Part shown: positions 443 through 27,597 of the stretch, piece by piece | How the letters are laid out: each line of letters starts with the position of its first letter | Position numbering within the stretch: the stretch's first letter is position 1 | Assembly: GCA_964480775.1 (NCBI GenBank) | Contig: CAYZRF010000001.1 | Coordinates: 88,201 to 120,200, forward strand | Length of the DNA: 32,000 nucleotides | Reading direction: 5' to 3' | Origin: an uncultured Nitrososphaerota archaeon | GTDB lineage: Archaea > Korarchaeota > Korarchaeia > Korarchaeales > Korarchaeaceae | Position numbers and translations under genes: made by a program | The notes under the pieces: model-generated | The model's database searches: none | What the model was told of the DNA's origin: nothing | The model's input: the letters and a program-made list of their open reading frames with translations, nothing else

Positions 443-2269
443 TTATCTAATCATTCTCTTTCTCAGCATATTAGCTAATAGCTCAAGAGTTCTATTTACC
501 TCTATAAGAGTTTCTTCCATATTTTTGTTCTCGTCTTCAGTGTAGGAACCACCCTCTAATGAACTAATTAGCTGCTTCACATGCTCTAACCCCTTTCTCT
601 CCTCGCTGAGTTCTGTTCCTAGGAATTCTTCTAATCCTCTTAGAACTTCTTCAAATGCAGCCGCTTTCTGCCTAGCCACTTCGATACTTACTCCAACGGG
701 CGAGAGGGCTCCTGCAAGAACAAGGTTCTCTCCAGATAATGAGATGTCCCCGACTTCCTTTACGATCCTTTCAACAACCCACTTTCTCCACCTTGGAGGA
801 ATAAACTCAAGTTCTCCTATGGATACGGAGCCTCTTTCCCTCACTAGGGAAAGTATTCTTCTTCTCCATATGGGATATAACCTTAACAAGTCTTGAAGGA
901 CTTCTTCTGAAGCTCTTGCTCCTCTTACAAGCTCCTTTGTCCTCTTTGTTATTTCTTGAACCTTCTTCTCCAGAGGAATATCGGATTCCAAGATTTTGAC
1001 AAGCTTCTGTATTTGGCGTTTGACCCTTTGAGACTTCCTGGTGTCCTCAGGGATCTTCCCAAGTTCCTTAATTGCCTTGCTCAGCTCGACTATTAATTTG
1101 ATATCTTTCAATACGGTCTCTGCCTTTTGAACAAGGCCATCTAGCTCAGCACTTTCAAGAATCGACTCAATCCCCGAAACAGAATTTAGATCCTTTTTCA
1201 GGGATTCGACCATATTTGAAAAGAAGTTTGTCCCTATCAAAGAATCTAAGGTTGGTACATCGTTTTCCACCTCTTTTAGTGCCTCGAAGAGTTCTATCCT
1301 CTTTTCTAGTAGCGAACTTATGCTTTCTGATTGAATTAATAACTGAGATAGCTCTTTTTCTAATTCTTGTGCCGAAGATATGGCCTCTTCATAGCACTCC
1401 GGTCCTGCTTTCTTACATTTATCTCTAATTCTCGAAATAAGCACATCCTTCCAACTTAAGTATTCATCAATGAATGAAAGCTTCAATCCTGCCTCAGAAG
1501 CTTGCTCTGAGACCTTCCCTAGCTCTTCAAATCTCTGCTTTATCTTCTTCAGATGTTCCTCAAGCTCCTCCTTCTTATCGAATAAGATCTTGCACTCAGC
1601 CTCTAACTCATCTAGCCTCGTAGTGAGCCTTGGGAGGTTTTCAACATAGAAGGTTAAGGTTTCTGGAGTAATTTCTCCACTAACGACTGACTTCAGACCT
1701 TTCTCAATTCTTAAAAGCTCATCTCTAAGCCCTATAGGCTCTAAACCAAGCCTATCCATTTTATCGAGCAATGAGCTACACTTTTCCATTAGATCTCTCG
1801 TTTTAACCCTTAGAGCTTCCACCGCAGATTGTGAAGCATCTTCCATCGCACTATCTATCTCTTCAATCAATTTCCTGAATCTCTCCTCATACTGCTGGAT
1901 AGTTGAGCTAAGGAACATCTTTCTATTGAATAGAATCTTCCTGTTGTAGTGTTCATCCTCGACCATCGAGCTTAGAAGATGTTGAAGCATTAGCTCTAAT
2001 CTGGAAGCTGGATCCTCAGATCCAAAGATAGTTGGATCGAGAAGTTTGATCGTTTTTACAAATCTCTTAAGGTTGTTACAGGCCATCATAGCTTTCTCTA
2101 CAAGCTCTAGCAGCCCATCCTTCTTTAGATTCTTCAAAAAAGACTCTACTCTCTTTTCATCGTGACCTCGCTCAGCAAGGTACGTAAAGAGGTCTATTTC
2201 ATCTGGTGGCTCGCTCAATCTGAAAAGATGTGTAGAGTATGAGGATAAAAAATTATAGGTGGAAAACAA
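443..2269 (-). CDS. Long coiled-coil protein with winged-helix-like segments; function unknown
   Basis: 608-aa ORF rich in E/K/L heptad-like sequence. It has no Walker motifs. The C-terminal third has a wHTH-like stretch (RRRILSLVRERGSVSIGELE). The longest ORF starts at TTG; another in-frame TTG lies 17 codons downstream, so the start is uncertain. It is divergent from the GTPase gene. Confidence 0.6.
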   Translation of the reverse strand: MFSTYNFLSSYSTHLFRLSEPPDEIDLFTYLAERGHDEKRVESFLKNLKKDGLLELVEKAMMACNNLKRFVKTIKLLDPTIFGSEDPASRLELMLQHLLSSMVEDEHYNRKILFNRKMFLSSTIQQYEERFRKLIEEIDSAMEDASQSAVEALRVKTRDLMEKCSSLLDKMDRLGLEPIGLRDELLRIEKGLKSVVSGEITPETLTFYVENLPRLTTRLDELEAECKILFDKKEELEEHLKKIKQRFEELGKVSEQASEAGLKLSFIDEYLSWKDVLISRIRDKCKKAGPECYEEAISSAQELEKELSQLLIQSESISSLLEKRIELFEALKEVENDVPTLDSLIGTNFFSNMVESLKKDLNSVSGIESILESAELDGLVQKAETVLKDIKLIVELSKAIKELGKIPEDTRKSQRVKRQIQKLVKILESDIPLEKKVQEITKRTKELVRGARASEEVLQDLLRLYPIWRRRILSLVRERGSVSIGELEFIPPRWRKWVVERIVKEVGDISLSGENLVLAGALSPVGVSIEVARQKAAAFEEVLRGLEEFLGTELSEERKGLEHVKQLISSLEGGSYTEDENKNMEETLIEVNRTLELLANMLRKRMIR

Positions 2270-2392
2270 TGGGAAAAAGTGGGAAATTTGTTAACACAGG
2301 AATCTAACTTGGGAACAATCACCATCAAAGCAACCTTTAATTTTAGATAGGAACTTTTCTTTTTGTCCCTTCGAAGGGCTAGGGAGCAACAG

Positions 2393-3019
2393 ATGAAGAA
2401 GGTAAAAATATACGTCACTGGGCCTTTTCAGGCAGGAAAAAGCTCGATAATCCACAGACTTGACCCAGAGTCTCTTAGCATAGATTATGAAAAGAGAGAG
2501 TTTTCAACCACCGTTGGATTTGATCTAGGAATCCTTTTCTGGAACGTAGACAGGGGGGAGATACTAACCAGATCGGAGTACCAAGCCAAGTTCTCTGAAT
2601 ACGTGTACGACGAGGTATGGGAGATAGTTCTAATGGGAACTCCAGGTCAAAAGAGATTCGCTCCTGTCAGAGAAATTCTAGCAAAAGGGGCAGCAGGGGT
2701 TTTGCTGGTGATTGACAGCACAAAAATAGGTCAAGTAGGCGTCGCTCTTGCAATATATGAGGAAGTCAGGGCATTTCTAGGTGATGATGCGCCAATGGTA
2801 ATACTTGCTAACAAGCAAGATCTGGACTCTGCAGCTGATATAGAATTGATAAGAAGCATTATGAAAATAAACCCATCTCAACTGTATGGAACGTCGGCTA
2901 GAGATGGAACCAACGTCAAGGAGGCTTTGATCTCCCTTCTGACCATGATTAGAAAGAGAGAATTTGAGAGAGCACTAAAAACGAGGGAAGAACTAAGTTC
3001 TGATAGACCTCCCTCATGA
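2393..3019 (+). CDS. Small Ras-superfamily GTPase, MglA-like (COG2229-type)
   Basis: P-loop GPFQAGKSS, G3 motif GTPGQ (lacks the Asp of DxxGQ, as in MglA TVPGQ), G4 NKQD and G5 TSAR. I placed the start at ATG 2393, preceded by GGGAG, rather than the TTG at 2363 of the ORF track. Confidence 0.8.
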   Translation: MKKVKIYVTGPFQAGKSSIIHRLDPESLSIDYEKREFSTTVGFDLGILFWNVDRGEILTRSEYQAKFSEYVYDEVWEIVLMGTPGQKRFAPVREILAKGAAGVLLVIDSTKIGQVGVALAIYEEVRAFLGDDAPMVILANKQDLDSAADIELIRSIMKINPSQLYGTSARDGTNVKEALISLLTMIRKREFERALKTREELSSDRPPS

Positions 3020-3141: not shown

Positions 3142-3519
3142 GTGTCTACGAGATTAGAAAAAATCGAAGAAAAGCTAAGAGATCTTGAAGCCGCTGTTCC
3201 AAATATAGAAGGGAGTGCGGTCATTAGCCTCGATGGTCTAGTAATGGCTAGCAGGTTTAGGTCAGATGTCTCCGAAGAAAGAGTAGCAGCAATGAGTTCA
3301 GCTCTTCTGAGCATAGCTGAAAGAATAAATGAGGAACTTGGTAGAGGAGAGTTTCAAAGAGCTCTTGTTACTGGTAGCGACGGATTCATAGTTTTGAATC
3401 CGGCTGGTCCAGATGCTTTGGTGGCTTGTATTTGCTCAAAGGAAGCTAAGTTAGGCATGGTGTTCTACGAACTTGACAAGCTTTCTAAGGAATTGGCTCA
3501 AATAATATCTGGGCCTTAA
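3142..3519 (+). CDS. Roadblock/LC7 domain protein (MglB-like)
   Basis: 125 aa with the typical Roadblock pattern (GSAVISLDGLVMAS ... ALVTGSDGFIVL). GTG start preceded by GAGGTGAT. It lies 122 nt downstream of the GTPase on the same strand. Confidence 0.75.
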   Translation: MSTRLEKIEEKLRDLEAAVPNIEGSAVISLDGLVMASRFRSDVSEERVAAMSSALLSIAERINEELGRGEFQRALVTGSDGFIVLNPAGPDALVACICSKEAKLGMVFYELDKLSKELAQIISGP

Positions 3520-6582: not shown

Positions 6583-9500
6583 TTATACTTTGACTAAAGA
6601 TCTTATCTCATGATAGACTTCCTTTATCGCCTCTTGATACTCAAATCTTCCCTCTTCTATCATGGACATTTTTTCCTCAAGAGTTCTGGTTCTATCCTCA
6701 CTAATTAAGGTTGGATACTTCTTAGTTAGAAAGTCATACACCGTGATCCCTATCTTTGTTGGTATCAATTTTCCATTCTTTTCAATTACATATCTTCTCA
6801 TAAGGAGCTTTTGTAGGATTACAGCATAGGTAGATGGCCTTCCTATCCCCCTTTCCCTCATTGTTGCGATGACCTCTCCTTGAGTGTAGAGAGGAACCTT
6901 TGGGGCCCTTTTGTGCTTAATTCTCACCAAAATCTCTCCAGACTTTAGAGGCCTCTCAATCCTAAACCTGTATGGATAGATCATGGTCCAGCCAGGAATC
7001 GTTGCCTCTACGTACCTCTCTAGATCAGATGATGCTCCCGCTATCATAACCTTAATCCTTTGCTTCTTTAACCTAGCATTCTCACTCATTGAAGCCATGA
7101 ACCTCCTGAATATCAGGTCATACAGCCTCATATGGTTCCTTTTGAGCTCTACTTGGGGTTTAAGAAGGCCTTCTCTCATGTATCTTATGAGATCGTCTAC
7201 AGTCATGGGCTTAGTGGGACGTATGCACTCGTGAGCGCCCTCTCCTTCCCAAACCCTCGGCCTGAATTTTTCACCAAGGAAAACTCTTGCAACCCTCAGC
7301 CCTGCCTCGGATACTCTATGACTGTCAGTTCTATGGTAGGTTATAAGACCAGCTTCAAAGAGGTTCTGAGCAAGGCTCATTGTTTCTGAAGCCCCGAGCT
7401 TAAGAACCCTGTTGGCTTCCTTCAACATCTCATCAGTGGTGAAAGGAGGCGGCGGAGGAACGTTGACATATTCTTCAGCAACAACTTCGACATAGGCCTT
7501 GGTTTCACCTGGCTTGCCCACCTTTCCTTCAATTCTAAAACATATTCCGTCTCCCTCAATCAGTGTGATATCCTCCCTCTTGAGGTGTTCTTTGTATCTT
7601 TGGATTATCCAGCCAAGAGTAGGTGTTTGAGCTCTTCCAGCGGAGAGATTCCTGTTCTTGAATACTTTCTGAAGAATCTGGCTTAGCTCAAAGCCAATCC
7701 ATCTGTCCTCTATTCTTCTAACAATTTGCGCCTTTACTCTATTTTCTGAGATATCTCTAAGCTCAGAGAGAGCCTTGATTATAGCGGATTTGGTGACCTC
7801 GTGGAATTCTGCCCTAAAAACATCCTTGGAAAAGGGTCTAATTAGCGAAGCTATGTCCCAAGCTATCTTCTCTCCCTCAACATCAGGATCTGTGCCTATG
7901 ATGACCCTCTCATTTTCAAATGCAAGCCTTCTAAGCACTCGAAGAGTGCGCTTGGAATCCAAGATGTTGCTTGAACCACAAACAGGACAATTTTCTCCTT
8001 CTGTAAACTGATATCCACACACCTGACATCTCTTCAAGGTGCAGTAAACTGGTACAAAGAGATCATCCTCAACTAGCACTCCATGATACCCTTCCTTGGT
8101 GGACAGATCTACAACGTGACCTCCGGTCGCAACTATTGTCACTAGCTGATTGCCTGTTGAAAAATCGTAGGCTGGTAGTCCCTCTATGTTCCGTCTACTT
8201 GGCCTACCAAAGAAGCTGGCGATTGTTCTGGCCTTATTTGGACTCTCAACTATGAAAAGGAGGGTTTTAGGCATCATTTCAGGAGGAACTTTCTTCCCCT
8301 TCAGTCCACGGATCCTCTTTCTGTCTGAATCAATCTCTTCTTTCAAAGATTCCAAGTTGACTTGGTCGATTGGCTTGAATTCTATGTCAAAAATACTAGC
8401 TCTCTTAACAAATGCGTTTAAAAGAGAGCCTTCTTCGATCAGGAAGGCTGCTCCCTTAGACAGACCACCCGGGAAGAGTCTTGACGTTCTTCCTGAGCCT
8501 TGAATGTAGGTCCTTATGTCAGGTAGTAGTACCTTGATCCCATTTTCGTACCTTACCACCACATCCCCTAAACCTGAGAGTTTCTCCCAAAATTCGCTGT
8601 TAGACAGAATTTGGGATAGAAGATCCTTGGCTCTAGCAAGATCTTCCTCAACAAAACGTCCACTCCTAAGTTTAAGCGATAAGAGCTTGGATTCCCTACC
8701 CAACAAAGGAGCTATGGTTGAAAGAACTGTGCCGATGGCTCTAGGGCTGGCTTCTTCCAGTTTCTCCAAAGAAAACTCGAAATGAGGGGCTCCATAAAAG
8801 ACAGCATATCTAATCCTCTCAGGGAGGTCTAATCCCCTAACTAATACTCCATACGGTTTAGCAGCTCCTACGAGAGCATCTAACTCTCTAGAGGCAAAGG
8901 CCTGAATGCTTGTCTCCTTGGAGCCTGAAACTTCCTCAGCTCTAAGTCCAGCTGACTCTAAGGCATCGATAACCTCATCTACCAACTCAAGCTTTGGAAC
9001 GTAGACAAGAAGGCCTCCTCCCATCGTTTGAGCTATTTCAGATAGGATTTCCTTGCTTTTATCTGGAACTTCTATGTCCTCTACGTTTCTTAGGACTCCT
9101 TCCCTCAAAACCCCTATGTCAAATCCAAGGAGCCTCCTGAACAGAATAGCCCTCCTACCAGGTCTGGCTGTTGCTGAAGATAGCATTATAACGCCTTTAG
9201 GTAGATCTTTCCTCTCTATTTTCACTGCTCTTAGAGCCGACTCCACGACTTCATGGGGAAAACCAAGCAGGACAAGAACTCTATCGACGTTCTTTGAGTT
9301 CTTCAAAAGAGAATCCACATCATCAACGAATATGAAGGAGAACGTGTTGTTTGCAAGAATATCAGATCTTCTTGCTAAGAACTGAGATGTTATGATAAGT
9401 ACATCGAAATTCCCCTCTTTGATCGTCTCTAAGAGCCTTTCCCTTTCCCTTACCTTCCTAACGCCGCCATAAGCAACTATTCTAAGTTCGAGACCACCTT

Positions 9501-9879
9501 TCTTGGCATAGGCGATAGCCCTTTGCTCTGCTTGTCTGACAAGGAGGACGGTCGGAACAACGACTAAGCTCTTCCCCCAGCCTTTACTAGAGTAAAAAAG
9601 GGACATAATTATGCCGAAAACTGTCTTCCCGATACCTGTCGGAGCAATCGCAGCGAAGCTTTGTTGTTGCAGCACCCTTTTGGCCCAAGATCGTTGGGCT
9701 TCCCAAAGTTCAAACCTCGTGCATCTCTCAAAAAAGGAACAAAACTCATCGCACAAGCTGATGAGATTACCAAGTTCCTTCTCAGGCGAGCACATTTCAT
9801 CTGGTTTGTGGGTAACTAAGTTAAGGCTGTAACCAGGACAAAGCTTCTTGTAGACTGCAGGTATCATTCTCGCAAGCAA
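6583..9879 (-). CDS. rgy: Reverse gyrase (SF2 helicase-like domain fused to type IA topoisomerase)
   Basis: Helicase motifs AIAPTGIGKT, FIFVDDVD, SSATARP and QGSGRTSR. Toprim LLFIVESPNKARTIASFFG and IGTDPDVEGEKIAWD. Internal zinc ribbon CQVCGYQFTEGENCPVCG. Catalytic GLITYHRTDS. TTG start at 9879 preceded by GAAGGT; an alternative ATG lies at 9867. Confidence 0.95.
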   Translation of the reverse strand: MLARMIPAVYKKLCPGYSLNLVTHKPDEMCSPEKELGNLISLCDEFCSFFERCTRFELWEAQRSWAKRVLQQQSFAAIAPTGIGKTVFGIIMSLFYSSKGWGKSLVVVPTVLLVRQAEQRAIAYAKKGGLELRIVAYGGVRKVRERERLLETIKEGNFDVLIITSQFLARRSDILANNTFSFIFVDDVDSLLKNSKNVDRVLVLLGFPHEVVESALRAVKIERKDLPKGVIMLSSATARPGRRAILFRRLLGFDIGVLREGVLRNVEDIEVPDKSKEILSEIAQTMGGGLLVYVPKLELVDEVIDALESAGLRAEEVSGSKETSIQAFASRELDALVGAAKPYGVLVRGLDLPERIRYAVFYGAPHFEFSLEKLEEASPRAIGTVLSTIAPLLGRESKLLSLKLRSGRFVEEDLARAKDLLSQILSNSEFWEKLSGLGDVVVRYENGIKVLLPDIRTYIQGSGRTSRLFPGGLSKGAAFLIEEGSLLNAFVKRASIFDIEFKPIDQVNLESLKEEIDSDRKRIRGLKGKKVPPEMMPKTLLFIVESPNKARTIASFFGRPSRRNIEGLPAYDFSTGNQLVTIVATGGHVVDLSTKEGYHGVLVEDDLFVPVYCTLKRCQVCGYQFTEGENCPVCGSSNILDSKRTLRVLRRLAFENERVIIGTDPDVEGEKIAWDIASLIRPFSKDVFRAEFHEVTKSAIIKALSELRDISENRVKAQIVRRIEDRWIGFELSQILQKVFKNRNLSAGRAQTPTLGWIIQRYKEHLKREDITLIEGDGICFRIEGKVGKPGETKAYVEVVAEEYVNVPPPPPFTTDEMLKEANRVLKLGASETMSLAQNLFEAGLITYHRTDSHRVSEAGLRVARVFLGEKFRPRVWEGEGAHECIRPTKPMTVDDLIRYMREGLLKPQVELKRNHMRLYDLIFRRFMASMSENARLKKQRIKVMIAGASSDLERYVEATIPGWTMIYPYRFRIERPLKSGEILVRIKHKRAPKVPLYTQGEVIATMRERGIGRPSTYAVILQKLLMRRYVIEKNGKLIPTKIGITVYDFLTKKYPTLISEDRTRTLEEKMSMIEEGRFEYQEAIKEVYHEIRSLVKV

Positions 9880-9906: not shown

Positions 9907-11991
9907 TTAAATTGCCTCATCACCCCAGGATGATGAAATCCTCTCTACGACACCATCTCTCATCTCTACCTTCGTGTCAGCATACTTGAGCACATCTTCT
10001 TGGTGGCTAATCACGATCACCTGCTTGAAAGACTTCTTCAGGTTCCTTGCCATGAGTTCCATTATCTTCTCCCTTCTCTCCGAGTCGCTAGATGCGAGGA
10101 CTTCGTCTAGAAACAAGAATTCTGGATGAGCTCCTCTAACACTCGGGACAAGGGACAGGGTGAAAGCAAGACGCATGGAGAGAAGAATTTGATCCTGAGT
10201 CCCTCCACTGAACGAGCGGAGCTCCTTGTACTCTCCAGCACTCGAGTCGTATACAAACACATCGTAACTCTCGTTTACTGCTACTGCAAGGTACCTGTTT
10301 AACGTTATTACAGGAAGAATAGTTGACATCCCTTCACTTACTGCTGGGATGACGGCCTTTCTTGATGCCTCAGCAGATTCCTCTAGTAACTTGATCGCAT
10401 ATTTTACGGTATTGAGCTTTCTCTCAAGCTCCTTGACTTTTTTCTGTTGTTCCTCAATTTTCTCCTCTATTCCAGCATTTCTCTCCAGATACTCTCTTAT
10501 ACTAACGAGCCTATCCTCTAGCTGCTTTAATTGGCCCTTTCTATTCCCTAGTTCTTGTGTCCACCTCCTAAATTCAATTTCAATCTCCTTTAAGATTGCT
10601 GGAGAGAATTTGGGAACGTCTGGAGGCAATTCAGGTTCAAACAATGATTCTAGAGAGGTTCTGATCCCATCAATTTCCTCTACAAGCGCACTTCTCTCTT
10701 GCTCAAGCTGCTCAATTTCTCTATCAATTCTCTCCTTTTCTTCGAGGAACTTATTGATCTCACGGTATTTCTCAGCCGATGCTCCAAGTTCTCTTGCCTC
10801 TTCAAGGAGGTCAGCCCTTTCCTTTCTTAGCTGTCCCGCTCTAGCATGTAGTTGAACGCCATAAAGTGCTATAACAAGTCCTATCGATAGGACAGCAAGG
10901 TACTTTATTCCTAACATTATGATCAGAGGAATTCCGACTAAGGCTACCATTATTCCAAGAAATTCAAAAGGTCTTGCTTTTCTTTCGGAGTTTTGGGCTT
11001 CTCTTTCCTTCGAATCTGCTAGTTCTTTGATCTTTTGTAACTTCAAGGAAGCATCTTTAAACTTCCTTCTAAGCTCGATTTCACCTCTTATTTCAGATAA
11101 TCTGCGTCTCTTTTCTTCAATTCTATGATCTATGGTTTCCAGTCTTTTTGAACTAGATCTTAACTCAGTTTCAAATTGTTGTTTCATATTGACATATTCC
11201 TGGAACTTCCTAAGTGCGGTCAGCTTTGAGTTGAGTCTTTTGACCATGCTTTCTGCGTGGACTATAGAGCTTTCTTCATCTTCAGGTCCTTTTAAAGCCT
11301 GAATTTTGGGGATAACCTCCTCTAGCTCTTTCTCTCTGTTCTTATACTCTTCTAGTCTTGTTTTCAAATGTTCGAGTTCTTCTCTTGCTCTTCTAAGCTC
11401 CCCAAGTGTTTTAACAGTTCCTTCAAGGCGCTTTCTCTCTTCGTTAAGCTCTTCAATTGCTTTATCAAAGCTCTCTCGCATCATTATCTTGTCTATTAAT
11501 TCTCTCCTATCTTTCCTAGTCTTCTCCTTTATTCTGGCCAAGTCTTTTTGCATGACAAAGATCGTGCTTCTTGCCTCCTCTGGACCCATTCCTCCAAGCA
11601 TGTTCGAAATCTCAGCGTCAACAGCCATTTTTCCACTAGCTATAAGCTCCCTTCTATTCTCTTTTAGCTTAAAGAGCCTTGCAGTGCTTCTTGTTCCTCT
11701 AGCATCCCTTTCAATCGTTCTTACAACTTCATACTTTTCGCCTTCGGATTCGAAACCAAGCCTCAGGAGAGCTTTGGTCCTCCCGTATGCCAAATAATCC
11801 TCAAGCTTGGATTCGGTTTCCATAGTCCTGCCAAATAGCGAAAAAAACACAGCCTCCATAACGCTAGTCTTACCGCTTTCATTTGGACCTCTTATCCCTA
11901 TGATGCCTTCAGAGAAATCTATTCTGAACGAACCTTGACTTCCTCTAAGATGTTTGAAGCCACTTGCCTCTAAGTAGGTTAGTTTCACCAC
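9907..11991 (-). CDS. rad50: Rad50-family SMC-like ABC ATPase, atypical: no zinc hook, central hydrophobic hairpin
   Basis: Walker A GPNESGKTS, Q-loop FVMQKD, signature SFSGGTQ, Walker B/D-loop FLFLDEVLASSD and H-loop VISHQ. Long coiled-coil arms. The GTG start overlaps the mre11 stop (GTGGTGA) with GGGAGG upstream. There are no Cys residues. Residues ~342-379 are FEFLGIMVALVGIPLIIMLGIKYLAVLSIGLVIALYGV. Confidence 0.85.
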   Translation of the reverse strand: MVKLTYLEASGFKHLRGSQGSFRIDFSEGIIGIRGPNESGKTSVMEAVFFSLFGRTMETESKLEDYLAYGRTKALLRLGFESEGEKYEVVRTIERDARGTRSTARLFKLKENRRELIASGKMAVDAEISNMLGGMGPEEARSTIFVMQKDLARIKEKTRKDRRELIDKIMMRESFDKAIEELNEERKRLEGTVKTLGELRRAREELEHLKTRLEEYKNREKELEEVIPKIQALKGPEDEESSIVHAESMVKRLNSKLTALRKFQEYVNMKQQFETELRSSSKRLETIDHRIEEKRRRLSEIRGEIELRRKFKDASLKLQKIKELADSKEREAQNSERKARPFEFLGIMVALVGIPLIIMLGIKYLAVLSIGLVIALYGVQLHARAGQLRKERADLLEEARELGASAEKYREINKFLEEKERIDREIEQLEQERSALVEEIDGIRTSLESLFEPELPPDVPKFSPAILKEIEIEFRRWTQELGNRKGQLKQLEDRLVSIREYLERNAGIEEKIEEQQKKVKELERKLNTVKYAIKLLEESAEASRKAVIPAVSEGMSTILPVITLNRYLAVAVNESYDVFVYDSSAGEYKELRSFSGGTQDQILLSMRLAFTLSLVPSVRGAHPEFLFLDEVLASSDSERREKIMELMARNLKKSFKQVIVISHQEDVLKYADTKVEMRDGVVERISSSWGDEAI

Positions 11992-13145
11992 CCACCAGCC
12001 TCCCTGAGGGCATCAACAGCTAACCTGTAAGCATCATCAATCAGTTTTCTTCTATCCTCAGACTCTTCCTTGCTGATGGCTTCCTCGTATATCTTATCTA
12101 GCATCCTAATAGGGCTGGCCAGACTTATCTTGGGGGCCGAAAACGCATCTGGATACTCGAATTCTTCCTCAAGCTTTAGATCAAAGAAAAGCTCTCTTGC
12201 CCTTGCAAGGATCTGATCTTTAGCATATGTGGTTCTAATCTCAGGAAGCATAGCTCCTCTAAGCTTAAGCCTGACAATTGCTTCTCTTGGGACTTCTGAG
12301 GATGTTTTCTCAAGCAAGGATATGATCGTCCCGGTGAGGTTCTCGTTGCCCGAAATCCCATATTCAATCGTCACCATTGGCTTTGTGGGAAGATCAACCT
12401 GTTCTACCCTTTTTACCCCATTTCTATCCGCTTCAATGATCGTAAATCCCTTTTTCTCATTTTCCTCGGAGAAAGAAAGCCTTTCTATAGTTCCAACGTA
12501 GCATATAGTAGGATTTCCCCACTGAACGGTGTGGGCATGTAGGTGTCCTGCTACCACGAGGTCAACTTCCTTTGGTATGCTAGTCCTTCTTATGACATGT
12601 CTTTCCCTTCCTGGAGGGGAAAATCCCTCGATGACGTCATGAATCATAAGGATGTTCATGTCTGCATCGAATTCTCCCAAAGTTCTGATGTTTCTCAAGG
12701 GATCGGTTCCTTCCTCTATGATAAAGGGGTTGAACCCTATTCCGCCCAGCGCCACAGAGATGCCGTCAATTTCGAATTTATCCACTTCTATAACATCTAT
12801 CCTATCGAACAACCTCAGAAGTCCAGCTCTGGAGTAAACGTGGAGAGGAGTAGGCATCCTTCTTGTTTTAGGTCTATCGTGGTGGCCTGGCACCGCATAA
12901 ACCCTAACTCCGGCTTTGTTTAACGCTCTAAGCTCCTCTGCAAACTTGACCAAAGTTAAGAGTCTGGGTCTTACTCTATCAAAAACGTCTCCTGGTAGTA
13001 GAAAGAGGTCTGCCTCCTTTTCCAATGCGTATTCAACAGCTTTTTTGAAGTTCTCTTGAAAGTCCCTTCTCCTTTCTTCCTGCGAACTAGGAGCCATCCA
13101 GCTAAAAACAGGATCTAGATGGGACTCTAAGGCAACTATAAGCAT
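11985..13145 (-). CDS. mre11: Mre11 nuclease (calcineurin-like phosphoesterase) with variant motifs
   Basis: Phosphoesterase motifs in order: ALESHLD (I), PGDVFD (II), PGHHD (III), LMIHDV (IV) and AGHLHAH (V). ATG preceded by TAGGAGG. Sits between herA and rad50. Confidence 0.85.
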   Translation of the reverse strand: MLIVALESHLDPVFSWMAPSSQEERRRDFQENFKKAVEYALEKEADLFLLPGDVFDRVRPRLLTLVKFAEELRALNKAGVRVYAVPGHHDRPKTRRMPTPLHVYSRAGLLRLFDRIDVIEVDKFEIDGISVALGGIGFNPFIIEEGTDPLRNIRTLGEFDADMNILMIHDVIEGFSPPGRERHVIRRTSIPKEVDLVVAGHLHAHTVQWGNPTICYVGTIERLSFSEENEKKGFTIIEADRNGVKRVEQVDLPTKPMVTIEYGISGNENLTGTIISLLEKTSSEVPREAIVRLKLRGAMLPEIRTTYAKDQILARARELFFDLKLEEEFEYPDAFSAPKISLASPIRMLDKIYEEAISKEESEDRRKLIDDAYRLAVDALREAGGW

Positions 13146-13157
13146 TGTAAGAGCCTC

Positions 13158-14774
13158 CTATCCCTTATCCCATTCATCTCCTCTAGGCATGTCAACGTCC
13201 TCAAACCCTTCTATCCCAGCCTCCTCCTTGGCTGCTTTCAACCTCTGCACAACGTCGATGTCAGCCCCTCCCTCTTTAGATCTCCTTCTCTTGATCTTCA
13301 CTGTAACTGGAACCCTGGTAAACTCTCCAACGAGGACAGCCTCTCCAACATTTAAGCCAGGGAGATCACGCAGGAGTTCCTCGCTAACCCTCTCTGCAGC
13401 AGATCTTACAGCTTCCTGATCTTTTGGATTTACCATTGAAAGTATTATCTGGTTCTGACACATGCTTAGGCTATCTGGATCTATTTTACAAGGTCTTTGG
13501 CTTATTAACACTAAGTAGATTCCGAACTTCCTTCCCTCGCTCGCTATAACGTTTACTATCCTCTTGGAGTGGGTTTGTCGATCAGCTGGAACAATCTTGT
13601 GGGCTTCTTCTAAGACCAGAAATACGGGATATCTAAACTTGCCGCTTGAAACAGCCCAATAAATGTCTGAAAGGACTTTGGTGGCTGTGAAATCAAAAGC
13701 ATATCCGGTGACACCAGAGAGGTCTATGACGGAAACGTGCCAAGGCCTAAGGATATCATGCCAAGGAGTTGTGCTCTCTCCAAAAATAGGCAATCCTAGG
13801 AGCCTTTGCCTGACCCTCTCTGCAGCAGAAGAAGCTGCTAAACGTAATCTATTGTCCTTTTCCTCTTCAGCCATAATATTCAGCTTTTCCACTAGGTCAG
13901 ATGCAGTATAGCTTCCTCTATTCTCCTTAAGGAAATCAATTGCCTTAGAAATAGCTCCTCTTATATGAACCGATGTTTGAGGAAGATCCAACATGCTAAA
14001 CAAGTCTTCAGGTTCCAAGTCTGAGAACTTAATGGTAAATTCACTAACTTCTGCAAGAATTTGTGATGGAGAGTATCTTCCAGTACTTCCCGGGTTTCTA
14101 AATATGGTAACCCTTTCTACATATTCCATAGATCTGCCATCTTGAGTCTGTCCAAGGAAGACGTAATCAGCATGCGGGTCTAGTATCACGATAGTTGCTC
14201 CTTTTTCCATCAGACCTTCGATGAGGACTGCTGCTGTATTGCTCTTACCAGCGCCGGTTGCCGCGAGTATTGCCAGGTGTCTCCTTAAGCCTTGAACTGA
14301 AATGGAAACAGGAACTTCTGGCCTTGTTATGAGGCTACCCAGCTCTATGCTTGCCTCCCCATAGGAGAAGAACTTCTTTAGGAGGTCTGAAGGAGCTCTG
14401 TAAACCAATCTTCCTGGGACAATTGCTCTTCTCGGTATTTTCACATTTCCTTCATCCGATAGGTATCCTAGCACTCTTGCCTGAGCGTACGCTACCTTTC
14501 TATCAACTCCCATTTCAGCGATCCTCTCAACTGCTTTATGATCCGTTGTAGGTTGTAGCACCATGCTAGCACTGACTGGCTTTTCTACCTGAGCTAAGAC
14601 AAAGACCCTTTCCATACCCTGAGACGTCCTCTCATGGGATTCAACTATGACGTACTCCCACCTCTCTGGCGGGCCTGAAGAAGGATCGCAGGAGAATATG
14701 AAGCTAGTGGGGGTAGCCTCCCCCACTATCCTCCCAAGAATGTCAAGCTCAGATAATCGAAACACGCCTCTCAC
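13158..14774 (-). CDS. herA: HerA bipolar DNA helicase/translocase (FtsK-HerA superfamily)
   Basis: Walker A ILAATGAGKSNT and Walker B VFLVLEEAHK. N-terminal barrel-like region. Operon context. GTG at 14774; a second GTG at 14765 has a better-placed GGTGA and may be the true start. Confidence 0.9.
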   Translation of the reverse strand: MRGVFRLSELDILGRIVGEATPTSFIFSCDPSSGPPERWEYVIVESHERTSQGMERVFVLAQVEKPVSASMVLQPTTDHKAVERIAEMGVDRKVAYAQARVLGYLSDEGNVKIPRRAIVPGRLVYRAPSDLLKKFFSYGEASIELGSLITRPEVPVSISVQGLRRHLAILAATGAGKSNTAAVLIEGLMEKGATIVILDPHADYVFLGQTQDGRSMEYVERVTIFRNPGSTGRYSPSQILAEVSEFTIKFSDLEPEDLFSMLDLPQTSVHIRGAISKAIDFLKENRGSYTASDLVEKLNIMAEEEKDNRLRLAASSAAERVRQRLLGLPIFGESTTPWHDILRPWHVSVIDLSGVTGYAFDFTATKVLSDIYWAVSSGKFRYPVFLVLEEAHKIVPADRQTHSKRIVNVIASEGRKFGIYLVLISQRPCKIDPDSLSMCQNQIILSMVNPKDQEAVRSAAERVSEELLRDLPGLNVGEAVLVGEFTRVPVTVKIKRRRSKEGGADIDVVQRLKAAKEEAGIEGFEDVDMPRGDEWDKG

Positions 14775-16104
14775 CTCTAGTGTGTAACTCCATCCACCCT
14801 AGCCTGTTCCAAAGGATGGGCTCGTAGATATCAGCAAAAGCCTTTCTACTTATCTTAACTATCCTATCAACATCTGCGAGCCAAACGTTATGATTTTCTG
14901 GGTTCGCATATCCTTTAATCAACGTAACCATAATTTTTGAGAAGAGAGACTTATCATAGTCATAAGTTCTGAGGGCATGAACCCTCTCGAAGTCTCCAAA
15001 CATGAAATCCAAACCAAAGACCCAAGCGGGGATGTCAACTCTGACTGGCTGATCCGTCTCTGAAAACTTACAGCAGGTTGATACTATGGCAGGTAGCTCT
15101 AAAATTAGATTTATTACCCTTTTTACTTCCTTTTCAGCTTTAAATGGATCCTCAGCTTTTCTTGTTGCTCTTCTAGCAATATCTTCAGGTCTTGCCTGAA
15201 GTTCAAGGAAAAGAGCCCTGCTTGTTGATGTGTATGGTCCAACGAGGAGGGGTTCAGAGAATCCTCTCTTTTCTATGCAACTCATTATCACTGCAAAATC
15301 ACTTCTCTCCACCAGTATTTCAGAGGCTATCTCTAAAATCTTCCTTAGTCTGCCACCATACTTTTTGTTAAGTTCCAGTATTAGTGTCATTGAGACCTTG
15401 GGATCTGACTCCAGCGCCCCAGCCGCTGTACTTATTGTTATTTGATCCGCTTCTTCTATCATACCCGAAATGCGCTCTAACTCTTCGTCGAAAAGTTGGA
15501 ACAAGACCATTCTCCTAAGAGGGTATGCCCTGCTGTCCTTTGAAATCCCAACAATCGGTATTTTCCTCTCTCTGCAGGTCTCAAATAGCTGAAAAAGAGC
15601 TCTTGCATACTGCACGGCTAGCTCAGCAGGAATTCTACCTAGGTTATAGACGGAAGCCAGCTCTCTCGCTATCAAAGAACCATCAATCAGGACGATAAAT
15701 TCTCCGCTTGTTTCTTCTATTAGCTTTCTCAAGACCTCGTGCTCTAAAGTCTCCCCCATTCGAGAGATTACATCCCTTACCTCCATAGAACCCAGTAAAG
15801 GTCTCAAATCAAGAACCCTCTCTTCTTTTAGCCTTCCTCCTGGGCCATAAAGCACAGCGACCGCTCTTGCCAATAGTATTGATATCCCAGGAGCATATTC
15901 TTTGCTTAAAAAGCTAGAATCGCTTGCTATAACGTTTTTAAAAGGTTCTTTTGATTCAAAATTGTCGAAAGCCAACCAAAGAGACATGAACTTCTCTTCC
16001 ACTTCTTTGTTAACTGAGCTTAATTCTCCCTTACCAAAAGCAGCCTCGATCTCTCTTCTTCTTCTTTCTACTGCCTCAGCAAATAAATCCAAGAACCTTG
16101 GCAA
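14749..16104 (-). CDS. nurA: NurA 5'-3' nuclease
   Basis: NurA-type motifs VIASDSSF and IVLIDGSL. 451 aa. Overlaps the herA start by up to 26 nt. TTG start with a TATA-like box ~30 nt upstream, so it may be leaderless. Confidence 0.8.
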   Translation of the reverse strand: MPRFLDLFAEAVERRRREIEAAFGKGELSSVNKEVEEKFMSLWLAFDNFESKEPFKNVIASDSSFLSKEYAPGISILLARAVAVLYGPGGRLKEERVLDLRPLLGSMEVRDVISRMGETLEHEVLRKLIEETSGEFIVLIDGSLIARELASVYNLGRIPAELAVQYARALFQLFETCRERKIPIVGISKDSRAYPLRRMVLFQLFDEELERISGMIEEADQITISTAAGALESDPKVSMTLILELNKKYGGRLRKILEIASEILVERSDFAVIMSCIEKRGFSEPLLVGPYTSTSRALFLELQARPEDIARRATRKAEDPFKAEKEVKRVINLILELPAIVSTCCKFSETDQPVRVDIPAWVFGLDFMFGDFERVHALRTYDYDKSLFSKIMVTLIKGYANPENHNVWLADVDRIVKISRKAFADIYEPILWNRLGWMELHTRGERRVSII

Positions 16105-16180: not shown

Positions 16181-17002
16181 CTAAGCGGTTTCAGCTTTCT
16201 TAAAGATGAACTCGCAATAGGGGTCCCCCATTGCTATGCATTTTACTTCGCTTGACTCTAAGTCGACGCCCAAAAATGCTGAAAAAAGTCCTTCTAGGTA
16301 GCCTCTTACGAAATGACATCTTGGTTTGCTGCTTCTCCCTTCAAAAGCAGCGGACTCGTATAAATCGTATATACGCAATCTTATGAACTTTTTATCTAAA
16401 TCTGCTTCTAGCAGCTCAGGAATACCCCACCCTGCAGCCTGAAGTGACTTTAGATCTTCTCTGAGGAATTCCTTTGTTATGTTTTTAGAACGAAATATCT
16501 TGCCACTTACTTCTCCCCTTGTTTTCCCTAGGAAATACAGAAAAGCCTCTCCTCCAGTTCCATATTTGTCGTGTATTTCCTTTATAAAGAAAGATAAGCC
16601 CTCTCTATCTTCCAGAATTACTCTTTGTCCTCCTGAGTCTACAGTTATAGGATAACACAAAATGTTGAAGATCTTGTCCTTTACAGGGCTTTTTCTTATT
16701 TTATATTCTTCAATCTCACCCTCTCTCTTTAATATAGAAAATAATTCTTCGAGATTGTTCTCTGCTTTTTTCATCCTCAAGAAACACGCCAGGTAGACTA
16801 CATCTTCACGTATAGTTAAGTTAAGAGATGCAGGCTCAAATCCGCTATCTGAGCACCTTGACATTATTAAAGAGAGTTTTCTTGCAAGATCATTTCTCTT
16901 AAGCTTAATTGCTGTCTCAACGATTTTTTCAGATGGAGAAAGCATGAAAAAAACATCTATAGGATAGAAAACTCCTTCTCCTCTGTCGGTCCTTTCACTC
17001 AA
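16181..17002 (-). CDS. V4R (4-vinyl reductase) domain protein
   Basis: C-terminal CHFVRGYLEGLFSAFLGVDLESSEVKCIAMGDPYCEFIF is a textbook V4R motif (C..GxxxG...E..C..G...C.F). TTG start; TATA-like TTTTTTATA ~30 nt upstream. Confidence 0.7.
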   Translation of the reverse strand: MSERTDRGEGVFYPIDVFFMLSPSEKIVETAIKLKRNDLARKLSLIMSRCSDSGFEPASLNLTIREDVVYLACFLRMKKAENNLEELFSILKREGEIEEYKIRKSPVKDKIFNILCYPITVDSGGQRVILEDREGLSFFIKEIHDKYGTGGEAFLYFLGKTRGEVSGKIFRSKNITKEFLREDLKSLQAAGWGIPELLEADLDKKFIRLRIYDLYESAAFEGRSSKPRCHFVRGYLEGLFSAFLGVDLESSEVKCIAMGDPYCEFIFKKAETA

Positions 17003-17060: not shown

Positions 17061-17573
17061 CTAAGAAAGCCTCACCTTCCTAGCTATCCGCTTAAGAACC
17101 TCTATTCTATCTTTTCTTCCATCTGCCATGGCCTTCAAAACCTGTTTAATCCCGTCTCTATCCCTAAGAATAAAAGAAAAAGCGATCAAGTTAACCATCA
17201 TTAGGTACTCTGGTCCTGAGAATGTTGTGTGCCATCTAATTAAGCTAACAACATCGTTGTCTTTTACAATGCCTTTTTCTATCTTAGTTATCATGTCTTC
17301 ATATCTCCTTAAGGCTTCCATTACTTTAGATCCAACTATGTCTTCACAGCCAGCTATGTCCTTTTCCACTAGAGGAGAGGCAAGTGACTTAGCGATACGC
17401 CGAAGAACATTTTTTCTCATGTATGAATCCATTGAAAGGTAATCGAATGCTATTTTTATCTCCTCTTCATCAAAGATCTTCGATAGTGCTAGGTAGAAAC
17501 GCCCCATTCTCTCCTCTAGATAGCTGAGACATAGTATTGTCCTAGCCAAGTCGAAAGAGCTTTGTTTCTTCAT
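17061..17573 (-). CDS. Hypothetical all-helical protein
   Basis: 170-aa ORF with an ATG start and ATTTTTAAATTA ~30 nt upstream. Predicted helical; no metal or nucleotide motifs recognised. Confidence 0.5.
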   Translation of the reverse strand: MKKQSSFDLARTILCLSYLEERMGRFYLALSKIFDEEEIKIAFDYLSMDSYMRKNVLRRIAKSLASPLVEKDIAGCEDIVGSKVMEALRRYEDMITKIEKGIVKDNDVVSLIRWHTTFSGPEYLMMVNLIAFSFILRDRDGIKQVLKAMADGRKDRIEVLKRIARKVRLS

Positions 17574-18124: not shown

Positions 18125-18571
18125 ATGGTAGATGATAACAGCCTTACATCGATTGCAAGGGAGAATCCAAATGAATTTATCTTGTTGGCGGTAGCTCTAT
18201 CCTTGAAAAATACATGGGGACCTACAGCCAACGTTGCTCTCTATAGTTCGGGCAAAGAATTGGGAAAATCTTTGAAATTGAGCTTTGAGAAGGTTGACAA
18301 TCTAGAAGAAGCCTTCAAAGAAGTCGAAAAAGCCCTGGATAATGCATGGAAGGGTAGGCTGGAGGGAGATAAGCTGATATTTGAGAAATGTTCTCTTAGA
18401 GAACTCTACAAAAAAGGTGGTGTTGAAACAAACGACCCACTACCCATCTGTTACTTTCACATGGGGTTCTTTGCAGGTCTATTAGAGAGGATATTGGGTA
18501 AGAAAGTGAATCTGAAGTTGCTGTCAAGAGGCCCTCTCTCTTGCGTAGAACAGGTGATAATTGAAAAATAA
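18125..18571 (+). CDS. V4R-like domain protein (degenerate)
   Basis: 148 aa. The C-terminal ICYFHMGFFAGLLERILGKKVNLKLLSRGPLSCVEQV keeps the C.f..G...G core of V4R but lacks the E..C element. Confidence 0.45.
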   Translation: MVDDNSLTSIARENPNEFILLAVALSLKNTWGPTANVALYSSGKELGKSLKLSFEKVDNLEEAFKEVEKALDNAWKGRLEGDKLIFEKCSLRELYKKGGVETNDPLPICYFHMGFFAGLLERILGKKVNLKLLSRGPLSCVEQVIIEK

Positions 18572-19383: not shown

Positions 19384-20463
19384 ATGAACTCCAGAGAATT
19401 AGTTGAAATGGCATACAGTGGACAAGAGCCTCAAAGAGTACCAGTGCATTTTGAGACCGTTGAGAAACACCAAGAAGTAACCTTGGGGGATGTGCTTCTG
19501 GGTCACGCTTGGGTTCCTATGTGGGGCTTATTCTTTGACGAAGGAGGTCCGTTTAAAAGAGATAGAAAGGATCTAGCAAGATGGGCTGTAGAGCTAGACA
19601 TTGAAGAAGGCTATGACTGGCCCTCTCTTGATGAGGTGGTTCAGGAAACCTTACAGGAATTTAGAGAGTCGATCAAAAACTTCATAGATTTGAATAAATT
19701 TATTGTGTTTGAGGTCATAGGCCCTACTGAGCAGAGTGAATACTTTCTCTGTCCACCTAAACCACCAAGTGGCTTTGATTTAGAGCTTGCATATCATACA
19801 TTTGATTTCGGGGTTTTAACTGTAATAGACAAGGAAAAAGCCAAACAACTCTATGATAGGATAGCAAACTATGTTCTTGAGTTAATTAAGGCTGGTACTG
19901 AAATAGAGTGGGTTGATGCTGTTAGGGTGGCAGACGACGCGTTTACTTACAGTGGTCCCATCTATCCAGATTGGTTTATGGACAAGCTCTACATGCCTTG
20001 GCACAAGAAATTTACGGGACATATACATAAGAAAGGCAAGTACGCGATACTACATACTGATGGAAATGTTTCTGCACATGATCACATAAAAACCCTCTCA
20101 GAGATATACGATGGTTTGCACCCGTTGGATCTGGCTAAGAAGGGTACTGTTTTGGATGCAATGCACTGGATAAATGATGTTGTCAAAGCAAGGACGTCGC
20201 TTGAAAGGAATATGGTGTTTCATACGGGCATACCCATAGATCTAATGATGTTGGATGAAGTTTCTGCATTGGATGTTCTGCGAGTGGTTTCTACTTTCTT
20301 GAATAAACATGGGAGAAAAAATCTGGTTCTTAGCGTAACCCATAGGCCATATCCAAAAAGAAATTTTCTTGAGGATCTGGTGTTTGAAAAGGTAAGAGCA
20401 ATCAGGAGGCTTGTTGGATTACCAGATATAGACGCAAAAGAACTAACACTTTCTGAGGAATAA
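19384..20463 (+). CDS. Uroporphyrinogen decarboxylase (URO-D)/MtaA-like family protein
   Basis: N-terminal LVEMAYSGQEPQRVPVHF resembles the URO-D family opening (..g...DRvPv). AILHTDGNV...DGLHPLD resembles the H.CGn...d.l.p.d core. A weak call made by eye. Confidence 0.4.
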   Translation: MNSRELVEMAYSGQEPQRVPVHFETVEKHQEVTLGDVLLGHAWVPMWGLFFDEGGPFKRDRKDLARWAVELDIEEGYDWPSLDEVVQETLQEFRESIKNFIDLNKFIVFEVIGPTEQSEYFLCPPKPPSGFDLELAYHTFDFGVLTVIDKEKAKQLYDRIANYVLELIKAGTEIEWVDAVRVADDAFTYSGPIYPDWFMDKLYMPWHKKFTGHIHKKGKYAILHTDGNVSAHDHIKTLSEIYDGLHPLDLAKKGTVLDAMHWINDVVKARTSLERNMVFHTGIPIDLMMLDEVSALDVLRVVSTFLNKHGRKNLVLSVTHRPYPKRNFLEDLVFEKVRAIRRLVGLPDIDAKELTLSEE

Positions 20464-26727: not shown

Positions 26728-27597
26728 TCAAAACTTTTTTGGCGTATATTCCTTCAAGGTATATCTTAACAAGCTTCTAACTAAAAGATCTATTATAAAA
26801 TCAGTGTTTGAGAAAGTATTATCTCCTAAAAGAAACATTCCACCTAGACCAACTTCAAATAGTCTTTCTCTAAGATCCTTAGGTATATGAGCCATTCCAA
26901 CATCGAGCTTATTCAAAATTTTCTCCTTGTATCTAGTTTCTTTCAATAAGGGGGCTGCACACCCAATCAGCTTCAAGTAGGAAAGTGCATATAGAGTCAT
27001 TCCATTTCTAGAGTCTTTCACCAAATCATAAGTCTCTAAATCTTCTTTCGTTGGCTCAAGGAGGTATGATACGTATGCTACCTGATCCTCCAAGAATCCT
27101 TTGTTCACGAATAACCTCGTGACTTCATAATCCTTGACTGCTATGGAAGTTAGGTACAGGATATTGTACAAGAACTCGCTATTTAGACCAAGTTCGATCC
27201 CTAGAGAGAGGAGAGACGAAGGAATGCGGAATTTGTAATACTTAGGAGAGCCATGTAGCACCGAGTGACCAACTTCATGTCTTATGCAACCATCCCTGAC
27301 AAGAGGTTGAACCTTTCTTAGAGAGTCCATCCTAAGGATAATCCTAGGTCTTCCTCTCCAAGCATCATGGGTAGCGATAAAACGGTTGCCAAATTCGGCA
27401 GATGCTATTTCTAAAGTAGCCCGCTCTTTTTTCATGAAATTCATGGCCGAATCAGAATCAGCGAATAGGTAGAGATCAAGCTCAAGCCCTTCCTTCTTCC
27501 CTATCTTTTTGTAACACCTTTCAATAAGGTTGATAATGTACTCAATTTCAGCATCATCAATTGAACCAAACTTTCTGAGCTTAATGGTAACTTTCAT
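26728..27597 (-). CDS. Hypothetical protein with HExxH zincin motif
   Basis: 289-aa ORF with an ATG start. CIRHEVGHSVLHG carries HEVGH (27265-27279). No family recognised. Confidence 0.5.
   Translation of the reverse strand: MKVTIKLRKFGSIDDAEIEYIINLIERCYKKIGKKEGLELDLYLFADSDSAMNFMKKERATLEIASAEFGNRFIATHDAWRGRPRIILRMDSLRKVQPLVRDGCIRHEVGHSVLHGSPKYYKFRIPSSLLSLGIELGLNSEFLYNILYLTSIAVKDYEVTRLFVNKGFLEDQVAYVSYLLEPTKEDLETYDLVKDSRNGMTLYALSYLKLIGCAAPLLKETRYKEKILNKLDVGMAHIPKDLRERLFEVGLGGMFLLGDNTFSNTDFIIDLLVRSLLRYTLKEYTPKKF

Follow-up and report, generated by a model that had tools for sequence, protein, structure and literature searches.

A hookless, SbcE/YhaN-type Rad50-like ATPase with a predicted membrane hairpin at its apex in a korarchaeal nurA-herA-mre11-rad50 operon

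A gene on the minus strand of a 32,000-nucleotide stretch of korarchaeal DNA (hereafter the window; contig CAYZRF010000001.1, positions 88,201 to 120,200 of the forward strand) encodes a Rad50-like protein of 694 residues. Judged from its sequence, the product is an ATP-binding cassette (ABC) ATPase of the Rad50/SbcC class and of the hookless SbcE/YhaN type, whose apex is a hydrophobic hairpin and not a zinc hook. It is not an oddity, since it belongs to a large SbcE/YhaN-like family without hooks. We predict, with a probability of roughly 0.7, that the hairpin inserts into the membrane. Reviews present the CxxC zinc hook as the defining conserved apex of Rad50 (e.g. PMC7752040), and models of DNA-end sensing by Mre11-Rad50 presuppose a ring that the hook closes. 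The locus described here reveals a large and old sister family with a membrane-type hairpin apex; this form fills its slot in an operon thought to perform essential end resection, and does so in several phyla of archaea, among them relatives of the ancestor of eukaryotes. In bacteria the hookless family itself has been known since 2009, though it is scarcely studied; the variant described here sits in the archaeal operon. Full-text searches turned up the 2009 paper on SbcE but nothing on an archaeal Rad50 with a hairpin or in the membrane.

The Rad50-like protein contains no cysteine and 7 histidines among its 694 residues, it gives no Pfam match to the hook domain Rad50_zn_hook (PF04423), and the other reading frames of window 10800-11020 hold no CxxC. 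The neighbouring proteins of the window average 1.2% cysteine, and a cysteine-free protein of this length is expected with a probability of about 1e-3 to 3e-2. In the middle of the protein, residues 342-379 (window 10855-10968) read FEFLGIMVALVGIPLIIMLGIKYLAVLSIGLVIALYGV. The uncharged core comprises the 40 residues 344-383 (window 10843-10962), in which K363 is the single charge, and it is made up as follows:

10912..10962, minus strand: hairpin helix 1, FLGIMVALVGIPLIIML, residues 344-360, within AlphaFold2 helix 312-360; Eisenberg mean hydrophobicity 0.92, hydrophobic moment 0.05
10903..10911, minus strand: apical turn G-I-K, residues 361-363, with the AlphaFold2 helix break at 361; predicted to lie outside the cell
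10843..10902, minus strand: hairpin helix 2, YLAVLSIGLVIALYGVQLHA, residues 364-383, then RAGQLRK, within AlphaFold2 helix 362-410; mean hydrophobicity 0.72, moment 0.10

The hydropathy of this stretch is far above that expected from the composition of the protein. Its maximum over 38 residues is 2.22, against 0.78 +/- 0.24 in 20,000 shuffles, none of which reached 2.22 (z = 5.9); the Kyte-Doolittle maximum over 19 residues is 2.72, and in a protein of that composition one would expect about 2.5e-4 stretches of 40 residues with at most one charge. When the hairpin helices of this protein and of four distant relatives are taken together, mean hydrophobicity ranges from 0.72 to 0.92 and the hydrophobic moment from 0.03 to 0.16, compared with -0.4 and 0.31 in the flanking coiled coil. 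High hydrophobicity combined with a near-zero moment fits helices surrounded by lipid rather than helices with one wet face. The core is bordered by basic sequences, ERKARP on one side and RAGQLRK on the other, and an aromatic residue of a kind typical of membrane interfaces stands near its C-terminal boundary. Such collars of Arg and Lys on both sides fit a membrane hairpin with its two ends in the cytoplasm. Almost all of 28 diverse members of the family share a core of 35-50 residues, Arg or Lys directly at one or both of its ends and net-basic flanks, and their turns consist of 2-4 residues that are polar or proline, with 0-1 charge (2 in the representative P0004). The position and the hydrophobicity of the hairpin are kept across homologues while the sequence itself diverges.

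The location of the hairpin with respect to the coiled coil can be read from the AlphaFold2 model, in which residue G361 is the sole helix break between residues 312 and 410. Since helices 312-360 and 362-410 part only at this glycine, the hydrophobic stretch forms the tip of the antiparallel coiled coil in the model, that is, it occupies the position of the hook. The original prediction, which had been made from the letters of the sequence alone, placed a helical hairpin of transmembrane character at exactly this point, in a Rad50 that it described as devoid of cysteine and hence of a CxxC hook. The hydrophobic sequence at residues 342-379 is exactly as it was quoted there, the basic outer flanks are present and recur as collars in dozens of divergent homologues, and the turn at residue 361 together with the conserved hydrophobicity without amphipathicity speaks for the proposed replacement of the hook.

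The same prediction had described the ABC head as complete and had noticed a break rich in proline and glycine in each arm of the coiled coil, and both descriptions were borne out. All the motifs of an ABC/Rad50 head could be located, including the Q-loop (Q148) and the H-loop (H663), and the AlphaFold2 model is non-helical at both breaks:

11866..11889, minus strand: Walker A, GPNESGKT, residues 35-42; N-E-[S/A]-G-K is a mark of the hairpin-type family
10189..10212, minus strand: ABC signature, FSGGTQDQ, residues 594-601, from the motif alignment
10084..10119, minus strand: Walker B and D-loop, FLFLDEVLASSD, residues 625-636, from the motif alignment
11272..11295, minus strand: interruption of the N-terminal arm of the coiled coil, LKGPEDEE, residues 233-240; the AlphaFold2 model shows no helix at 235-242
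10597..10641, minus strand: interruption of the C-terminal arm of the coiled coil, FEPELPPDVPKFSPA, residues 451-465; the AlphaFold2 model shows no helix at 449-463

The model, whose mean predicted local distance difference test (pLDDT) score is 83.5, has a Rad50 head fold, and its helices (198-234, 243-309, 312-360, then 362-410, 412-448, 464-504 and 508-562) build a long antiparallel intramolecular coiled coil. Foldseek aligns it with the Rad50 proteins of P. furiosus and M. jannaschii with a TM-score of up to 0.84. In a PDB search with a profile built from the protein and its relatives, the best matches were the Rad50 heads of M. jannaschii, T. maritima and P. furiosus (E-values of 1e-40 to 1e-33), E. 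coli SbcC being found at 1e-21. In the break of the C-terminal arm, P453, L455 and P456 each show at least 90% conservation (alignment A1). Indeed, a sequence F-E-P-E-L-P-P, with a nearly invariant P-x-L-P, marks this break in all the aligned archaeal Rad50s of the hairpin type, and it may serve as a joint or for docking.

A profile search of 1.84 billion cluster representatives returned 2,961 matches at E <= 1e-30. Among the best 149 of these 2,961 (E <= 4e-84), the hairpin was called in 145 and a CxxC in none; the 4 without a hairpin call are two fragments and two proteins slightly under the threshold. The search for Rad50 relatives without a CxxC, which had been proposed with the original prediction, thus uncovers a large family. 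Close relatives (97-50% identity), relatives of about 780 residues that are 32% identical and bacterial proteins of 550-1400 residues all carry a central hydrophobic stretch without a CxxC, while the more distant matches have a central CPxC without the hydrophobic stretch. The nature of the apex goes together with the sequence of Walker A. This motif could be matched in 140 of the 149 best representatives, where it reads G-x-N-E-x-G-K-[S/T] in 139 (N-E-[S/A]-G-K in 129), the exception being P0117, which has GPNGSGKS and a hairpin. In a second search, no protein with a motif-matched N-E Walker A had a central CPxC, and nearly every one carried the hairpin. CPxC was paired instead with N-G-x-G-K or a comparable non-N-E form (GRNAAGKT, GRNSTGKT); one N-A-S-G-K protein had the hairpin. 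The N-E-[S/A]-G-K signature was derived in the present analysis and is not a published definition of the family.

Several bacterial members link this family to SbcE/YhaN, to which the original prediction had already pointed, and the features of these proteins support the comparison. P0255, which is labelled "uncharacterized protein YhaN", has both the hairpin and N-E-[S/A]-G-K and is matched by the family profile at E=2.7e-33; a Veillonella homologue that adjoins an sbcD-like gene likewise combines an N-E-[S/A]-G-K Walker A with a central hairpin. The Pfam domain AAA_27 (PF13514, the N-terminal domain of YhaN) scores 17.4 bits on the korarchaeal protein, with a gathering cut-off of 22. It is present in the 32%-identical homologues but also in several hook-type Rad50s, and for this reason it was dropped as a marker of the family.

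The claim that the protein is a canonical archaeal Rad50 did not survive. Its best NCBIfam equivalog, NF003034, gives 126 bits for a cut-off of 700, and the protein falls far below the cut-off of every Rad50 equivalog. In a neighbour-joining tree built from head sequences only, all the hairpin types stand apart from all the hook types. Bootstrap support is 42/60 for a core clade of 50 sequences and 13/100 for the strict division into hairpin and hook types, the latter value being low because the Veillonella protein, P0046, L028 and L034 wander; the separation therefore rests on the core clade and on the motif correlation. The deepest bacterial members of the tree are unstable. Divergence is not confined to the ATPase. 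The HerA proteins of hairpin-type operons (including a bacterial one, see below) score 333-476 bits among themselves, versus 126-195 bits with the HerA of hook-type operons from Bathyarchaeia and Jordarchaeales; the HerA of the window is 37-49% identical to that of the other hairpin-type operons. The Mre11 proteins of these operons are likewise closer to one another than to hook-type Mre11. The NCBIfam equivalog cut-offs are missed by HerA (helicase_HerA, 238 bits for a cut-off of 970) and by Mre11 (75 for 500), and NurA has no match in NCBIfam. By these comparisons of sequence, the whole operon, HerA, Mre11 and NurA together with Rad50, and not only the apex, is a diverged, separate lineage. 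The idea that a local exchange of the apex cost a canonical Rad50 its hook was rejected, as the head-only sequences, Walker A and the partner proteins all belong to this separate lineage.

The genes in question are arranged in the window as follows:

14749..16104, minus strand: nurA, 451 aa (Pfam NurA, E=2e-15), first gene of the operon, with its 3' end overlapping the start of herA
13158..14774, minus strand: herA, 538 aa, hexameric translocase with a HAS-barrel and DUF87 (Pfam DUF87, E=1.5e-40; HAS-barrel weak)
11985..13145, minus strand: mre11, 386 aa, the nuclease partner (Pfam Metallophos; NCBIfam Mre11 families below cut-off)
9907..11991, minus strand: gene for the Rad50-like ATPase, 694 aa, hookless SbcE/YhaN type (Pfam SMC_N, AAA_23 and SbcC_Walker_B)
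6583..9879, minus strand: reverse gyrase, 1098 aa (Pfam DEAD, Toprim and Topoisom_bac), given as context and not as a proven part of the operon

The first four genes are co-oriented and overlap or nearly abut, with the layout of a NurA-HerA-Mre11-Rad50 operon; the rad50-like gene starts with GTG and overlaps the stop of mre11 by 7 nucleotides. The four-gene operon with a hairpin-type Rad50 is found with the same synteny in a relative at 84% identity, and it is also present in the 32% relative. Genomes in GTDB show nurA, herA, mre11 and a hairpin-type rad50 together in Promethearchaeota, Odin-, Hermod- and Thorarchaeota, in Bathyarchaeia and in Infirmifilum (Thermofilaceae), so that the hairpin type, as identified by sequence, is widespread in Korarchaeota, in Asgard archaea and in other Thermoproteota. 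The four-gene layout is conserved in the loci L001-L012, L026 and L063, and in related loci nurA likewise precedes herA. A hook-type Rad50 fills the same slot of the operon in Jordarchaeales and in other Bathyarchaeia, and both types thus occur within Bathyarchaeia and within Asgard. A bacterial metagenome-assembled genome (MAG), GCA_014360495.1 (L062/L063, 3892-10784), carries the full nurA-herA-mre11-rad50 operon with the hairpin type, and its HerA is 40% identical to that of the window, which suggests a transfer of the four-gene module between archaea and bacteria. A Chloroflexota member of the family has only the Mre11 partner. In the Promethearchaeota MAG DZ2S.148 (L008, L011), each of two contigs bears a hairpin-type mre11-rad50 pair, which reflects either a duplicated operon or a mixture of strains.

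The best described relative is SbcE (YhaN) of B. subtilis, an SbcC-like protein without CxxC and with long heptad arms, whose gene adjoins the SbcD-like yhaO, encoding SbcF (Krishnamurthy et al. 2009, PMC2811018). The first half of its central domain is hydrophobic, and the domain was completely insoluble when over-produced in E. coli. SbcE acts in double-strand-break repair and in transformation, and it coexists with a hook-type SbcC/SbcD (PMC2811018). The korarchaeal protein resembles the SbcE/SbcF system, compared here through this published description, in its SbcC-like head, the lack of CxxC, the hydrophobic centre and the neighbouring gene for an SbcD/Mre11-like nuclease. It differs in being archaeal and shorter (694 versus about 960 residues) and in belonging to nurA-herA-mre11-rad50 and not to yhaO-yhaN-yhaM; moreover, the cell may possess no other Rad50 than this. 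With the canonical archaeal Rad50 (P. furiosus, M. jannaschii, Sulfolobus; NF003034, NF002244, NF041034) it shares the head fold and motifs, the plan of the antiparallel coiled coil, the Mre11 partner and the slot in the nurA-herA-mre11-rad50 operon. Unlike these proteins, with their PF04423 hook, it has neither CxxC nor any cysteine, has a hydrophobic hairpin at the apex and reads N-E-S-G-K in place of N-G-x-G-K, and it is about 200 residues shorter than the canonical Rad50 profiles (872-895 residues).

The SMC-like ATPases of anti-phage systems (LmuB of Lamassu, JetC of Wadjet, AriA of PARIS) share with the korarchaeal protein only the generic SMC/ABC head and coiled coil, and the partners are Mre11, HerA and NurA, not LmuA/LmuC, JetABD or AriB. 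In PADLOC, the best model for the Rad50-like protein is LmuB, at 89.5 bits, which is weaker than the Rad50 models, and Mre11 and NurA have no match. An anti-phage system was accordingly rejected as an identity for the operon, since the PADLOC similarity is of a generic SMC/HerA kind and weaker than that to repair models. An origin from a mobile element was rejected as well, the hairpin type having no meaningful plasmid or phage matches. The single match on a Priestia megaplasmid proved not to be a YhaN: on the 1.08-Mb replicon pFDU301A of Priestia megaterium (L070, NZ_CP045273.1, 784922-795356), an unannotated cluster combines a hook-type (CPVC) Rad50 with an Mre11-like nuclease and a HerA-like ATPase, and the gene table lists one feature for the whole record.

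The most probable model for the function of the hairpin is as follows. In the predicted structure, an antiparallel coiled coil some 20 nm long (about 146 helical residues, 198 to 343) connects the two halves of the head, with the 40-residue helix-turn-helix (344-360, G361-K363, 364-383), hydrophobic all round, at its tip. The hairpin would be inserted in the cytoplasmic membrane with the N- and C-terminal sides both inside the cell, so that the Mre11(2)-Rad50(2) head would be tethered roughly 20 nm under the membrane. The bilayer, rather than a zinc hook, would then close the ring of Rad50, with or without side-by-side packing of two hairpins, and the protein, together with the co-diverged Mre11, HerA and NurA, would recognise DNA ends captured near the envelope and resect them. 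The steps beyond membrane insertion are proposed with less confidence than insertion itself.

Several points weigh against this model or soften it. Helix 2 is marginal by itself. The Wimley-White sum over 19 residues is -10.5 kcal/mol and the Hessa sum -1.8 for helix 1 (344-362), while the corresponding values for helix 2 (364-382) are -4.4 and +3.4, and helix 2 would probably insert only with the aid of helix 1. With helices of 17-20 residues and a turn of three, a monotopic, half-buried hairpin is indistinguishable from a fully spanning one. At the apex, the pLDDT of the model is only about 64. In B. subtilis, SbcE forms foci at the poles of competent cells but also on the nucleoid during growth, and the authors of that work do not term the central domain transmembrane (PMC2811018). 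Dimerisation through the hairpins and closure of the ring by the membrane are purely inferred. Finally, motif I of the korarchaeal Mre11 is E-S-H (residues 7-9) and motif III G-H-H-D (about 87-90) in the motif alignment, as they are in the 89% relative, while the other aligned Mre11 partners of hairpin-type Rad50s have D-[N/T]-H and G-N-H-[D/E], and the bacterial L063 has G-T-H-D. The metal site of Mre11 may thus be altered in this korarchaeal clade, going by its sequence, and with such unusual residues the nuclease activity of Mre11 is not certain.

Another way to account for the hairpin is that it forms the buried core of a soluble bundle between two apices, for instance four helices from two hairpins, which would replace dimerisation by zinc. 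According to PMC6969161, the zinc hook dimerises constitutively and an SMC hinge can stand in for it; in this sense its function could be taken over by another dimerisation module. The small residues G346, G353, G361, G371 and G378 would permit tight packing of helices, and the nucleoid foci formed by SbcE-YFP (a fusion to yellow fluorescent protein) would also suit a soluble protein. Yet the helices are hydrophobic on all their faces, as the moments of 0.03-0.16 indicate, and a bundle of two hairpins would therefore expose large apolar surfaces to water. The Arg/Lys collars and the aromatic residue near the C-terminal boundary are of the type seen at membrane interfaces, the length of the core is kept at 35-50 residues while its sequence drifts, and the isolated central domain of SbcE was completely insoluble; we consider the soluble bundle improbable. 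That the hairpin is an artefact, either a chimera or a frameshift hiding a hook-bearing frame, has a negligible chance of being correct. The open reading frame is continuous, window 10800-11020 is free of CxxC in all frames, and no point in support of an artefact was found. The same hairpin occurs in hundreds of distant homologues and in independent assemblies at 97-50% identity. Misassembly, a check that the original prediction had called for, is excluded because these assemblies, from ENA, JGI and NCBI (97, 84, 80, 77 and 50% identity), share the architecture.

A further alternative concerns the role of the operon and is compatible with insertion of the hairpin in the membrane. The hairpin operon might be a specialised second system, devoted to DNA processing at the membrane (inward or outward) or to defence, beside a hook-type Mre11-Rad50 that performs general repair. 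B. subtilis offers a precedent, since SbcE/SbcF exists there beside the hook-type SbcC/SbcD and has a competence phenotype. Given the separate lineage of the operon, with HerA scores of 333-476 versus 126-195 bits, the two could be paralogous modules, and both types of Rad50 do exist within Bathyarchaeia and within Asgard. Nevertheless, each archaeal locus examined has a single nurA-herA-mre11-rad50 slot, which the hairpin type fills, and no locus has both types. HerA matches the double-strand-break-repair HerA model (238 bits) better than the anti-phage HerA models (114-155 bits), and Mre11 and NurA, as noted, are without PADLOC counterparts. Plasmids and phages yielded no copies. On balance, a specialised second system seems possible but doubtful.

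Should the hairpin indeed lie in the membrane, closure of the ring by zinc would be dispensable where the bilayer holds the apices, and the processing of breaks would be spatially bound to the envelope. The polar foci of SbcE in competent cells and the insolubility of its central domain would also receive a simple structural explanation. Pushed further, the proposal is tentative and rather unlikely to hold in full: in Korarchaeia, many Asgard, Bathyarchaeia and Thermofilaceae, the cell's only Mre11-Rad50 would be anchored in the membrane, its ring closed by the bilayer and not by a zinc hook, and the recognition of ends and their resection by HerA-NurA would take place at the envelope, perhaps linking repair to the import, export or segregation of DNA. 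The zinc hook would then be one of two ancient solutions for the apex. Genes for rad50 and herA have been linked to the Ted DNA-import system in Thermoproteales (PMC9905601), which is suggestive only. The hairpin-type proteins are currently annotated as "AAA family ATPase", "SMC family ATPase" or "SbcC", and consequently genomes that possess only this type may be scored as lacking Rad50. For work on topology, the absence of cysteines makes the korarchaeal protein well suited to mapping by cysteine accessibility.

The surroundings of the operon provide some additional observations. The topoisomerase I encoded in the window shares a 90% cluster with a protein labelled "Candidatus Korarchaeota", in line with the korarchaeal origin of the DNA. 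The reverse gyrase gene starts 27 nucleotides past the stop of the rad50-like gene, on the same strand, and may therefore be co-transcribed with the repair operon; the synteny of the two genes is also seen in L001/L002. In the 84% relative (L001, 12441-15393), the reverse gyrase is called as three open reading frames (705, 188 and 92 aa) in two independent assemblies. In a MAG of the Acidilobaceae (L069, 9771-13331), it is a hook-type Rad50 that adjoins reverse gyrase, in convergent orientation. Four open reading frames of the window are without a Pfam match: 443-2269 (minus strand, 608 aa), 17061-17573 (minus, 170 aa), 19384-20463 (plus, 359 aa) and 26728-27597 (minus, 289 aa). Two proteins with a V4R domain are encoded near the operon, at 16181-17002 (minus strand) and 18125-18571 (plus strand). 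The first of these genes ends 76 nucleotides upstream of nurA, which lies on the same strand. The hook-type operon of a Bathyarchaeon (L064) likewise has a V4R protein nearby, and it may be a regulator. Further away, a gene for a small Ras/Arf-like GTPase (2363-3019, plus strand) is followed by a Roadblock/LC7 gene (3142-3519, plus strand). The two form an MglA/MglB-like pair, which is kept in the 84% relative.

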